DNA from: an uncultured bacterium
Lineage (GTDB): Bacteria; Margulisbacteria; WOR-1; CAVSGV01
Assembly: GCA_963699255.1 (NCBI GenBank)
Contig: OY969425.1
Span: forward strand, 1,080,001 to 1,112,000
Length of the DNA: 32,000 bases
Direction: 5' to 3'
Part shown: positions 26,312-27,821 of the stretch, in pieces
Numbering within the stretch: the stretch's first letter is position 1
Layout of the letters: every line of letters begins with the position of its first letter
Made by a program: the position numbers and the translations under genes
The notes under the pieces: generated by a model
What the model saw: the letters and a program-made list of their open reading frames with translations, nothing else
What the model was told of the DNA's origin: nothing
The model's database searches: none

Positions 26312-27790
26312 ATGAAAGCAGCGATCTATACGAGAGTTTCCACTGATAGTCAGGCAGAAGTTGAATTTAATTCCTGTGAGACGCAGGAGCTGAAAATAAG
26401 GTCATTCATTGCCAGCCAAAATGATATCGAGATTTATAAAGTCTATTCGGATCAGGGATATTCAGGAGCCAATCTTGACCGCCCTGCCTTGAAAGAAATG
26501 CTAAACGATATCCAACAGGGCAAGATCGATACAGTCATCGCATATAAGATAGATCGATTAACAAGATCGCCAAAGGATTTCTATCAGTTAATTGAGATTT
26601 TCGAGAAGGACAATGTCAGCTTTCTATCCATTACGGAGCGATTCGACACTTCCACTCCTTCCGGCAGGCTCTTGCGGAACATTATGCTGACATTCGCCCA
26701 ATTTGAAAGAGAACTTATAAGCGAGAGAATAAGGGACAAGATATTTGAGCGGGCTAAAAAAGGCATGTGGAGCAGCGGAAAACCTCCATTCGGATATAAG
26801 AAGGAAGATAAGAAGCTGGCAATTGAGCCGAGAGAGGCCGAGATAATTAAAACAGCTTTTGAAAGCTTCGTTGCCTACCCTTCAATCTCCGCTCTCTACC
26901 ATAAGCTGAAGGAAGCTAATATGCTGAACAGGGCGGGCTTGCCGCTTTCGAAGACGACTCTCGGCGGCATATTGGAGAGCATTGTCTATACAGGAGTGAT
27001 AAAGCACAAGGGCGCTTTCTATCCGGGAATACACACTCCGATAGTATCAAAAGAACTATTTGATGAGGTCCGGGATTTGAGAGTTGGCCGCGTCAGGCCG
27101 AAGAAGTCGATGAGTTATAATTATTCATTATTGCCCGGCCTTGTGCAGTGCAAAGAGTGCGGCTCGATAATGGGCGCGACATTCACCAATAAGATCAATA
27201 ACGGAGAGCGCATCAAATACTTCTATTACCGCTGTTCGCTTATAAATAGACGAGATAGATCGTTCTGCGATATCCGGCAGGTCAGCGCTGACCGGCTTGA
27301 TGATTTCATCATAGACAACCTTGACAAGATACGCAAAAACAAACAATACCTTGATAGTTTAATATATGTGCTAAACCATAATGAACAGGGTGTGTCAGAA
27401 AGTATCGAACTCAAGGGGTCATACTCTCCGATAACCGCCGAAAGGACACTGGAAATACTTAAAAATATTGTCGACGGCTCAAAGTTGAAAGGCAAAGTCG
27501 AAAAAAGGATCATCATGAAAAGGCACATCGAAAAGGTCATATATTCGAAAGAGACAATAGAAGTCAGGTTATTGTATTCCGAGAGCGGAGATACTTCCTG
27601 CGCTGACGCTAAAAATGCCGCCTACGGCCCGCTTTGCGACCCTTCGGCGGAAGAGAACTTGCTTTCAGCTAAGAATAAGGCGGCTTGTCGCGACGCAAGC
27701 GCCGCTCCAAGCCGCCCAAAATCCGCAATGGTTTGCGGGAACGATAAAATGGGCCCTGCAGGGATCGAACCTGCGACCAATCGGTTATGA
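26312..27790 (+). CDS. Large serine recombinase
   Basis: The N-terminus is MKAAIYTRVSTDSQ, followed by YKIDRLTRS and FAQFERELISER, with a CKECGS...YYRCS zinc ribbon. RBS AAAGGAGG is present. The last ~74 codons are encoded by IR2-R, and the ORF stops inside antisense tRNA-Met (...GPAGIEPATNRL). Confidence 0.9.
   Translation: MKAAIYTRVSTDSQAEVEFNSCETQELKIRSFIASQNDIEIYKVYSDQGYSGANLDRPALKEMLNDIQQGKIDTVIAYKIDRLTRSPKDFYQLIEIFEKDNVSFLSITERFDTSTPSGRLLRNIMLTFAQFERELISERIRDKIFERAKKGMWSSGKPPFGYKKEDKKLAIEPREAEIIKTAFESFVAYPSISALYHKLKEANMLNRAGLPLSKTTLGGILESIVYTGVIKHKGAFYPGIHTPIVSKELFDEVRDLRVGRVRPKKSMSYNYSLLPGLVQCKECGSIMGATFTNKINNGERIKYFYYRCSLINRRDRSFCDIRQVSADRLDDFIIDNLDKIRKNKQYLDSLIYVLNHNEQGVSESIELKGSYSPITAERTLEILKNIVDGSKLKGKVEKRIIMKRHIEKVIYSKETIEVRLLYSESGDTSCADAKNAAYGPLCDPSAEENLLSAKNKAACRDASAAPSRPKSAMVCGNDKMGPAGIEPATNRL
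27568..27752. repeat. IR2-R: right copy of the 185-bp inverted repeat, comprising the last 3 nt of tRNA-Met plus its 3' trailer
   Basis: See IR2-L. On the tRNA strand it contains the tRNA-Met terminator (27718..27738) and a second hairpin GGCGGCTTG-N20-CAAGCCGCC. Confidence 0.95.
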
Positions 27791-27821
27791 GCCGACCGCT
27801 CTACCGCTGAGCTAAGGGCCC
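27750..27821 (-). tRNA. tRNA-Met-type (anticodon CAU). It has elongator features (G1-C72), and Ile2 identity cannot be excluded
   Basis: The sequence is GGGCCCTTAGCTCAGCGGTAGAGCGGTCGGCTCATAACCGATTGGTCGCAGGTTCGATCCCTGCAGGGCCCA. The anticodon loop is CTCATAA. No CCA is encoded. Confidence 0.85.

Follow-up and report, generated by a model that had tools for sequence, protein, structure and literature searches.

How does a recombinase gene come to end inside an antisense tRNA gene, and why is its 3′ end repeated, in inverted orientation, upstream of the same gene? These questions are raised by a mobile element in a stretch of 32,000 nucleotides (nt) from an uncultured bacterium of the WOR-1 lineage of Margulisbacteria (assembly GCA_963699255.1, contig OY969425.1, positions 1,080,001 to 1,112,000), referred to here as the window. 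The element is inserted at the 3′ end of a tRNA-Met gene and encodes a large serine recombinase (LSR). Its anatomy suggests that the recombinase gene lies over the attachment site of the element (attP), that integration at the host site (attB) removes a conserved C-terminal peptide from the enzyme, and that a spare, inverted copy of attP is kept inside the element.

Structure of the insertion at tRNA-Met

A preliminary description of the window had reported an inverted repeat around the recombinase gene, and re-alignment bears it out. Positions 25047-25231 are the reverse complement of 27568-27752 with a sole mismatch at 25206, and the identity begins at the terminal CCA of the sequence GGGCCCA at the 3′ end of tRNA-Met. 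The two hairpins claimed for the arm are also present, one of CCGCAA-N4-TTGCGG followed by ATTTT and the other of GGCGGCTTG...CAAGCCGCC followed by UUAUUCUU. The arms, called T and T′, extend further, to 25047-25258 and 27541-27752 (212 nt, 98% identity, five mismatches), and the fold of the arm (-68.3 kcal/mol, z = -3.6) is better than that of 200 out of 200 shuffled sequences. A second inverted repeat, absent from the earlier account, pairs 21121-21167 with 25003-25049 (47 nt, 96%). It can be extended to 21121-21176 and 24995-25049, and it abuts the T/T′ repeat at a common CCA. Its copies are called P′ and P.

The ends of the element are defined by comparison with a related locus, L002, whose LSR is 94% identical. 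L002 is a rearranged, probably decayed copy, and is used here for the empty site and for the comparison of the right hybrid site (attR) only. At its empty site, tRNA-Met, CCA, a small hairpin, AATGACAAATGACCAATGACAAATGCC and tRNA-Pro follow one another uninterrupted; in the window, the homologous spacer and tRNA-Pro are found at or below position 21120, 6.6 kb away from tRNA-Met. With ^ marking the junction, attB reads GGGCCCA^CCA, the corresponding sequence at the L002 empty site being GGGCCCA followed by CCACTGCC. The left hybrid site (attL), at 27750, reads GGGCCCA^TTTTATCG, attR, at 21121, reads GTCGAGCCA^CCATCCCG, and an internal site at 25047 reads GTCGAGCCA^TTTTATCG in inverted orientation. 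From these junctions and the empty site of L002 it follows that about 21121-27749 was inserted and that the common core measures 3 nt, CCA, as predicted for a serine recombinase. The element and its counterpart in L002 are 88-96% identical at the nucleotide level, compared with 71-86% for the surrounding host genes, and the L002 copy has a different attR flank, which is a sign of mobility.

The layout is thus native spacer·P′-A-P·T-B-T′·tRNA-Met, where A is a cargo segment and B is the recombinase module, consisting of a non-coding region, a DprA-like gene, a small Cys-rich open reading frame (ORF) and the LSR gene. The parts, in the order of their coordinates, are as follows.

20923-21120 (-): native tRNA-Met trailer (CCA, hairpin, AATGACAAATG and the rest of the spacer) and tRNA-Pro, parted from tRNA-Met by the element
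21120-21209 (+): P′ at attR, with core TGG at 21121-21123 and the intact coding end of the recombinase C terminus, ARPVSCRAIPLIIPNTIHGCKKKDLHRL, followed by a stop codon
21269-24853 (-): cargo segment A, three genes encoding a Trypsin_2 peptidase (PDC-S45-like in PADLOC), a sigma70_r4/helix-turn-helix (HTH) protein and an HTH_17 plus HATPase_c_3 protein
24973-25049 (-): internal P side, with core CCA at 25047-25049 and the P half-site; repeats with 21121-21176
25047-25258 (+): left arm T, part of the internal attP-like site; inverted copy of the recombinase 3′ end
25290-25590 (+): structured non-coding region upstream of the DprA-like gene, with a long-range stem formed by 25307-25319 and 25538-25550
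25592-26116 (+): DprA-like protein (DNA_processg_A, Pfam E = 1e-13; ShosA/PsyrA-like in PADLOC), kept in relatives
26118-26309 (+): small Cys-rich ORF of 63 amino acids in the recombinase module, conserved in relatives
26312-27790 (+): large serine recombinase of 492 amino acids; body 1 to ~420, linker ~421-480 from T′, last ~12 residues from antisense tRNA-Met
27541-27752 (-): right arm T′ on the attL side; core CCA at 27750-27752, then two hairpins facing the incoming transcription of the tRNA
27750-27821 (-): tRNA-Met (CAT), the integration target and B-type half-site; its genomically encoded CCA is lost, GGGCCCA being followed directly by TTTTATCG

The P·T region (24995-25258) is best read as an intact, internal, inverted attP-like site, and T′ at attL and P′ at attR as the two halves of the other attP copy, which would have been split on integration. 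A second, inverted attP copy explains three features: the T/T′ repeat ends exactly in the tRNA, the P/P′ repeat ends at the same core, and the two repeats overlap by that core.

The recombinase gene and its own attachment site

As noted earlier, the recombinase ORF (26312-27790) crosses the right arm and ends in GPAGIEPATNRL within antisense tRNA-Met. The window holds a second recombinase, at 15325-16767, which is a paralog with 57% identity and belongs to a sister element at tRNA-Glu. Both proteins contain the Resolvase (PF00239, 2e-40), Recombinase (PF07508) and Zn_ribbon_recom (PF13408) domains, and in a Foldseek search the recombinase model matches the solved LSR structures 9dxh, 9iu2, 4kis and 9tep with E = 1e-14 to 1e-19. 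In the AlphaFold2 (AF2) model of the tRNA-Met recombinase, helices at residues 326-405 lie between the strands of the zinc ribbon, so that the helical (coiled-coil) insertion is present, while the tail at 427-492 is disordered throughout, with a predicted local distance difference test score (pLDDT) below 50.

The linker is predicted to be disordered. Its reading frame is kept open. The plus strand of T′ encodes it and has no stops in the recombinase frame; across the tails of ten loci, that frame has no stop in 522 codons, compared with 18 and 30 stops in the other frames. On the far side of the core, the P side continues in the same frame with the peptide [Q/R]TF[S/E]IILPN[L/T]IH[K/G][S/C]KK[R/K][N/D]L, or IILPNxIHxxKKxNL in short, and then a stop. 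Among 23 distinct DNA copies of this peptide, most of which stop soon after the motif, the mean entropy at codon positions 1, 2 and 3 is 0.75, 0.52 and 1.22, and in the codons of IILPN.IH the first and second positions are nearly invariant and the third is variable. This pattern indicates selection on the protein rather than on a DNA motif. The preceding QTF codons are constrained at their third positions as well; they coincide with the GTTTGA-like motif of the half-site.

The two possible ends of the protein are both found in nature. Among the 120 closest proteins and the two of the window, 62 tails run into antisense tRNA and 27 into the P side. Within clusters of 90% identity, pairs of LSRs that are 99.2-99.8% identical over about 477 residues part exactly at the junction, and these near-identical enzymes sit at different tRNAs. 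The location of attP within the ORF is therefore supported by the open frame through T, by the selected peptide past the core and by the alternative ends of 99%-identical proteins. In the AF2 model of a P-joined homolog, P0030, the linker (residues 424-482) has pLDDT below 50 and is followed by a β-strand at 485-491 with pLDDT of about 75. In the window and in two relatives, L005 and L006, the attR copy of the C-terminal motif is intact and the internal copies are degenerate after LIIPN; in the window, the minus strand of internal P, read in the recombinase frame, gives a partly degenerate C-terminal peptide ending in ARPVSCRARPLIIPNAFTTCGRVP and a stop. The internal motif is intact in the tRNA-Glu element and in relatives of the Patescibacteria type.

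Integration beside a tRNA gene thus appears to replace the conserved C-terminal peptide by residues of antisense tRNA. In the proposed mechanism, the LSR would insert the 6.6-kb element at the 3-nt CCA core at the 3′ end of tRNA-Met. Before integration the gene would run from the LSR body through the disordered linker of about 60 codons encoded by T, the core, and the P-side β-strand and basic tail to the stop codon. Integration through the gene-proximal attP would sever the last ~25 codons, which would come to lie at attR (21120-21209), and would give the LSR an end made of antisense tRNA. The 212-nt repeat would then be accounted for by the other, inverted copy of the attP region (LSR 3′ end, core and P). 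The lost C terminus does not resemble an ssrA-like degradation tag, as it ends in HKSKKRNLKR or HGCKKKDLHRL and has no -LAA-like terminus.

The geometry of the sites is that of an LSR. P-type and B-type half-sites of LSRs are told apart by an outward shift of the recognition motif, as described for the LI integrase. At most loci of the family, the distance from the core to a GTTyGA-like motif on the P side exceeds that to the T-loop sequence GTTCGA of the adjacent tRNA by about 4 nt, typically 22 versus 18 nt. A dyad, CGGGTCGA..TCGTTCCCG, can be recognised by eye around the core. The sites are short, with the minimal core CCA, quasi-symmetric half-sites and the difference in spacing between P and B. 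The tRNA-Met element has all the testable defining features of an LSR integrative element, with catalysis by the enzyme predicted. The spacing relations also suggest that this LSR family reads the universal T-loop sequence of tRNAs, which would explain the range of its targets.

Insertion would also affect the target. The hairpins of the T arms face inward; in the tRNA-Met element one is followed by AUUUU and the other, a strong GC hairpin, by UUAUUCUU, and in the tRNA-Glu element both arms carry clear terminators. The element would be expected to terminate the transcript of the tRNA that it interrupts.

Two other interpretations of the P region were considered and rejected. A conserved TTGCAC-N17-TATAAT/TAGAAT to the left of the arm resembles an outward promoter that could restore expression of tRNA-Pro. 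A consensus scan did not call it, the codon-position selection acts at the protein level, and many copies have no -10-like hexamer; the resemblance in the copies of the window may matter locally, though it is not the conserved feature. An attP formed by a hairpin of single-stranded DNA, as in CTX phage, is rejected by reasoning only: cutting of the stem would give hairpin-capped chromosome ends, unlike the junctions found here.

Recurrence in the family and proposed flipping of the recombinase module

Scans of genomes and metagenomes give 83 loci with an LSR at least 44% identical to that of the window, 27 of which are complete, that is, have the complete gene and enough upstream DNA. The preliminary description had proposed a search for members of the family at further tRNAs, and they are indeed found: of the 27 complete loci, 23 carry a T/T′ repeat, and 11 isoacceptors (Met, Lys, Asn, Gln, Glu, Ile, Thr and Val) are targeted. 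The repeat is absent from all 22 homologs that are more distant. In 23 loci a tRNA and a repeat are both present, and in 18 of these the right arm reaches 3-11 nt into the tRNA. At least 13 loci also have an adjoining P/P′ repeat, which measures 37-337 nt and has 3-13 nt in common with T. The hosts are Margulisbacteria/WOR-1, Saccharibacteria and other Patescibacteria, Omnitrophota, Elusimicrobiota, Planctomycetota, Caldisericales and Chitinivibrionales; close relatives are almost absent from viral contigs.

The clearest pair of junction states comes from L246 and L247, found in samples with neighbouring accession numbers. Positions 1-7790 of L246 and 361-8150 of L247 are 99.83% identical over 7.8 kb, and one LSR is P-joined, the other tRNA-Ile-joined. 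This pair, like the near-identical LSRs at different tRNAs, is a further sign of mobility. No inverted repeat is found within 6 kb upstream in this lineage, which marks the crossing of attP by the gene as the basic feature, to which the inverted spare copy has been added. Genes for radical SAM, PfkB, Zeta_toxin-like and MazG-like proteins lie upstream of the LSR.

Some loci are more complex. L114 has a third P-like copy (879-945), L167 has three repeat pairs, and in L019 (6340-6600) the T′ arm joins a non-tRNA flank beside a small zinc-ribbon ORF; these loci hint at arrays of more than two repeat-bounded segments. In seven others (L010, L011, L039, L015, L008, L100 and L113) the contig stops at the outer end of a T arm or within about 50 nt of it. 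Such ends fit a P/P′ repeat that breaks short-read assemblies, and insertions of this kind may systematically fragment the genome assemblies of the phyla concerned.

In L005, as in the window, the C-terminal motif is intact at attR and degenerate at the internal site; the LSR of L005, however, has the opposite orientation and runs on into the degenerate copy, so that one arrangement is turned into the other by inversion of B between the T arms. Inverted cores are found at the outer ends of the arms, and the inverted state of the recombinase module is seen in a comparison of two genomes, L005 and the window. T arms are 92-100% identical within an element and 75-90% identical between elements, and the mismatches of the window arms lie at their edges, the interiors being near-perfect. 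Such concerted evolution points to continuing exchange between arms. Recombination between the near-identical arms would flip the recombinase module and rejoin the LSR to the spare end, so that the enzyme would alternate between a tRNA-fused and a P-joined form. Large serine recombinases have attachment sites of about 50 bp and, in the absence of a directionality factor, the canonical ones pair attP only with attB. Since the T arms are much longer than such sites, and since canonical pairing is so restricted, flipping would most likely occur by homologous recombination and less likely by the LSR itself. With the spare inverted attP, an element that has integrated would be able to recover the complete enzyme or to switch back and forth between two forms of it.

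The joint account, an LSR gene over attP, a spare inverted attP and flipping of the module, appears to us probable. Several points weigh against it. By the canonical rules, an inversion between attL and attP driven by the LSR is not expected, and for this genome inversion and excision are predicted from an assembled sequence. In the internal P copy the distal half of the motif is gone, so that a role purely as a spare C terminus is less convincing here. The repeat is missing from L246/L247 and from four of the 27 complete loci and is not essential to the family. The P-joined proteins of the databases could stem from excised circles rather than from flipped integrated copies, arm identities of 100% in some contigs may reflect assembly collapse, and the β-strand of the P-joined LSR is known from structure prediction. 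A more far-reaching functional reading is possible, if on balance doubtful, namely that the recombinase senses the state of its own DNA. It would have the C-terminal strand when free or P-joined and lose it next to a tRNA, and the two forms would differ in activity or directionality; integration versus excision would then be controlled without a separate directionality factor, the spare attP would allow a flip back, and recognition of the T-loop would make the enzyme a natural pan-tRNA integrase.

Other explanations concern either the origin of the repeats or their use. In the preliminary description, the repeat was put down to copying or capture: the trailer native to the target tRNA would be taken up by the element and retained in inverted orientation. 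This proposal draws on the exact start of the repeat at the tRNA 3′ end, on its difference between the tRNA-Met and tRNA-Glu elements, and on the 3-13 tRNA-specific bases that the internal copy has in common with the neighbouring tRNA. However, the native trailer of tRNA-Met sits at or below 21120, at the other end of the 6.6-kb insertion, and in L002, where the site is empty, it directly adjoins tRNA-Met. Homologous T sequences, with their encoded peptides (AACRDASAAPSRP..SAMV), adjoin different tRNAs in different relatives, which marks T as DNA of the element; what precedes the left arm is a P half-site belonging to the element rather than tRNA sequence; and the few tRNA bases in common represent an ordinary core sequence, by which the end of the tRNA is restored. 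The observation from which the proposal started is confirmed and the capture mechanism is refuted, its probability being very small: the repeated T sequence arrived with the element and is not a captured tRNA trailer. The dissimilarity of the two recombinase tails, once put down to the copying of different trailers, likewise has another source, since the linkers of the two elements have diverged. The inverted repeats that flank the recombinase gene could also be taken for the termini of a transposon, made up of the recombinase module and the 212-nt arms and inserted between P and tRNA. Removal of such a transposon would join the P half-site head-to-head with antisense tRNA-Met, an implausible target; T and P are contiguous parts of one gene, in which the LSR frame runs from T into P up to the selected peptide; and the P/P′ repeat is left unexplained. 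This proposal is hardly credible. Inverted duplications are typical of assembly or amplification chimeras, and several related contigs end at or near the arm edge. Yet five real differences separate the two arms here, arms in relatives diverge by 5-24%, and the design is found in dozens of independent assemblies (more than 50), whose arm identities range between 76% and 100% and which include L006, labelled curated complete. An artefact, already argued against when the repeat was first noticed, is thus excluded for practical purposes, with a negligible chance of being the explanation.

The alternatives that accept two attP copies are closer to our reading. The copies might do no more than offer the excised circle a choice of two sites for integration, which could then take place in either orientation, and inversion within the chromosome would never occur. 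A circle with two equivalent attP sites would give both recombinase ends without flipping, both ends are seen (62 versus 27), and canonical LSRs pair only attP with attB. Against this, the LSR of L005 reads into the degenerate internal copy, which implies that the module has at some time been inverted with respect to the P copies, and the near-perfect arm interiors with mismatches only at the edges imply continuing arm exchange. We consider this alternative unlikely. Conversely, the LSR itself might act as an invertase on attL and internal attP, and on internal attP and attR, reshuffling cargo and recombinase modules in the manner of a shufflon. All three junctions have the core in common and the modules are bounded by identical half-sites, so that any pairwise exchange would regenerate the same types of junction; the third P-like copy of L114 and the T′ at a non-tRNA flank in L019 suggest arrays. 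The arms, however, measure 130-340 nt, compared with attachment sites of about 50 bp, their concerted evolution fits homologous recombination better, and evidence for non-canonical pairing of sites was not found. This makes an LSR-driven shufflon quite improbable, and flipping by homologous recombination remains our preferred explanation.

Relation to known systems and further features of the window

The element resembles those of the LSRs Bxb1, A118/LI, SPβ and PhiC31 in the three-domain fold of its recombinase, in its very short core (CCA) with hybrid attL and attR sites, and in the outward displacement of the P-type motif relative to the B-type, a geometry known from the LI integrase. Unlike in those elements, the recombinase ORF crosses the crossover point and has a conserved C-terminal strand on its far side, a second, inverted attP region of 260-480 bp is present, and insertion takes place at the 3′ ends of many different tRNAs. 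In archaeal integrases of the SSV1 type, the recombinase gene also holds its own attP and is interrupted on integration at a tRNA gene; those enzymes, however, are tyrosine recombinases of archaeal viruses, split in the body of the gene, and no inverted spare copy is kept. The invertible segments Mu G (Gin), P1 C (Cin) and the R64 shufflon also have long inverted repeats with crossover sites at their outer ends (0.6 kb in P1 C/Cin), and their inversion changes the 3′ end of an ORF. There, small serine invertases or Rci switch genes for tail fibres or pilins, whereas here an LSR would switch its own gene and the repeats double as attachment sites of a mobile element. The enzyme, an LSR of 492 amino acids, is not a small serine recombinase with a C-terminal HTH of the Gin/Hin/Cin type. 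The predicted excised circle, with two unique segments, two inverted repeats that carry the sites, and two isomers, is similar in form to the yeast 2-micron plasmid, in which FLP acts on FRT sites inside inverted repeats of 599 bp. FLP, however, is a tyrosine recombinase of a eukaryotic plasmid and flips for copy-number amplification, and the circle considered here is a predicted one.

Integration-dependent immunity of the mycobacteriophages BPs and Brujita was reportedly described by Broussard et al. in 2013. In these phages attP lies in a gene and attB overlaps a tRNA gene (reviewed in PMC9262239), and tRNA-overlapping attB sites of mycobacteriophages are used exclusively by phages with tyrosine integrases (PMC9262239). 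In both cases integration removes the C-terminal end of a protein and alters its behaviour; in BPs and Brujita, a repressor is split by a tyrosine integrase and an ssrA-like degradation tag is lost (PMC9262239), whereas here the serine recombinase itself is split, a predicted β-strand and basic tail are lost, and a spare inverted copy is kept. The element belongs to none of these classes, neither integration-dependent immunity nor the SSV type, the switches of P1 C, Mu G and the shufflon, or the 2-micron circle. In the literature searched, whose coverage was incomplete, no description was found of an LSR gene that crosses attP together with an inverted duplicate of attP.

LSRs are leading tools for the insertion of large DNA, and the control of their direction is an active structural question. 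A widespread natural family of LSRs with the gene over its own attachment site, in Margulisbacteria, Patescibacteria, Omnitrophota, Elusimicrobiota, Planctomycetota and others, would, if the account holds, offer a testable, self-contained coupling of the form of an enzyme to its state of integration. It would also provide an enzyme that apparently uses the conserved T-loop as part of its target, with near-identical enzymes at different tRNAs, and would account for the frequent ending of contigs of these poorly known phyla at or near such sites. In annotation, recombinase tails ending in G-x-E-P, N-R-T or D-S-N would have to be read as antisense tRNA, and the true C terminus of a recombinase may lie kilobases from its gene. 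The same design may also drive the exchange of small variable cargo, some of it defence-like, between the repeats.

The cargo of the tRNA-Met element (21269-24853) looks like a candidate defence module; PADLOC does not type it as a known defence system. It is wholly different in L002, L004 and L005, although the flanking repeats are conserved: a response regulator lies between the same repeats in L002, and an MmeI-like methyltransferase and a radical SAM protein in L004. P′ at attR is 96.5% identical to 1230-1372 of L002.

The recombinase module has further conserved parts. The gene between the DprA-like gene and the recombinase encodes 62 amino acids in L001-L004 and 41 in L005; the small Cys-rich ORF of the window has no match in Pfam or PADLOC. 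The non-coding region of about 300 nt upstream of the DprA-like gene has counterparts at 11712-12016 beside the paralog and at 4980-5281 in L002, 4980-5282 in L004 and 222-523 in L005. Its long-range stem of 13-15 bp, AGCATTTTTTTGC / GCAAAAAAATGCT, shows compensatory changes in four columns among five sequences and encloses the invariant blocks CTCCTTCCGGCCCTCCGCT and TCGCTTCGGGTGACAGG. Rfam has no family for this region (25290-25590) or for the T arms. The non-coding region may represent a structured RNA or else DNA that resembles an origin.

The sister element confirms the earlier remark that tRNA-Glu has the same design, with an inverted repeat at 14799-14964 and 16573-16738 (166 nt, 97%). 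Its extent and inner parts are as follows.

14716-16801: sister element at tRNA-Glu
14716-14800 (-): internal P, with intact motif ending in RTVSIILPNTIHGCKKLNLRRSE and a stop codon
14799-14964: T arm
15028-15234 (-): HTH gene
15325-16767 (+): recombinase
16573-16738: T′ arm
16727-16801 (-): tRNA-Glu

Its order differs in that the DprA-like module (11719-12730) is located outside the T/T′ repeat and the HTH gene inside. No attR copy of the C-terminal peptide of this element is found within the window. Its left edge lies near 11660-11720, beside host surface-protein genes, and the sequence TGGTAG, the reverse complement of the core CTACCA, occurs close to it at 11694-11699.

The rearrangement of L002 is seen at 7300-7520 and 9200-9480, where the right arm is truncated at about 7313 and joined to a duplicated region with the partial 5′ half of a tRNA-Val. 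In addition, tRNA-Val(CAC) has the opposite orientation to that in the window, and the LSR has been cut down to 446 amino acids. L002 is probably a decaying copy, and its state suggests that such elements scramble tRNA clusters.

AT-rich repeats of the type AATGACAAATGACCAATGTCAAAT are found at 21012-21100, 28584-28630 and 28791-28830, in spacers beside several tRNA genes, and are conserved in L002 (~8620-8690); in this lineage they may serve as promoters or spacers of tRNA genes. The region between both elements has ordinary host content, including a thiamine pyrophosphate (TPP) riboswitch (Rfam RF00059, 57 bits) at 18735-18846, upstream of the ORF at 18837-19877.

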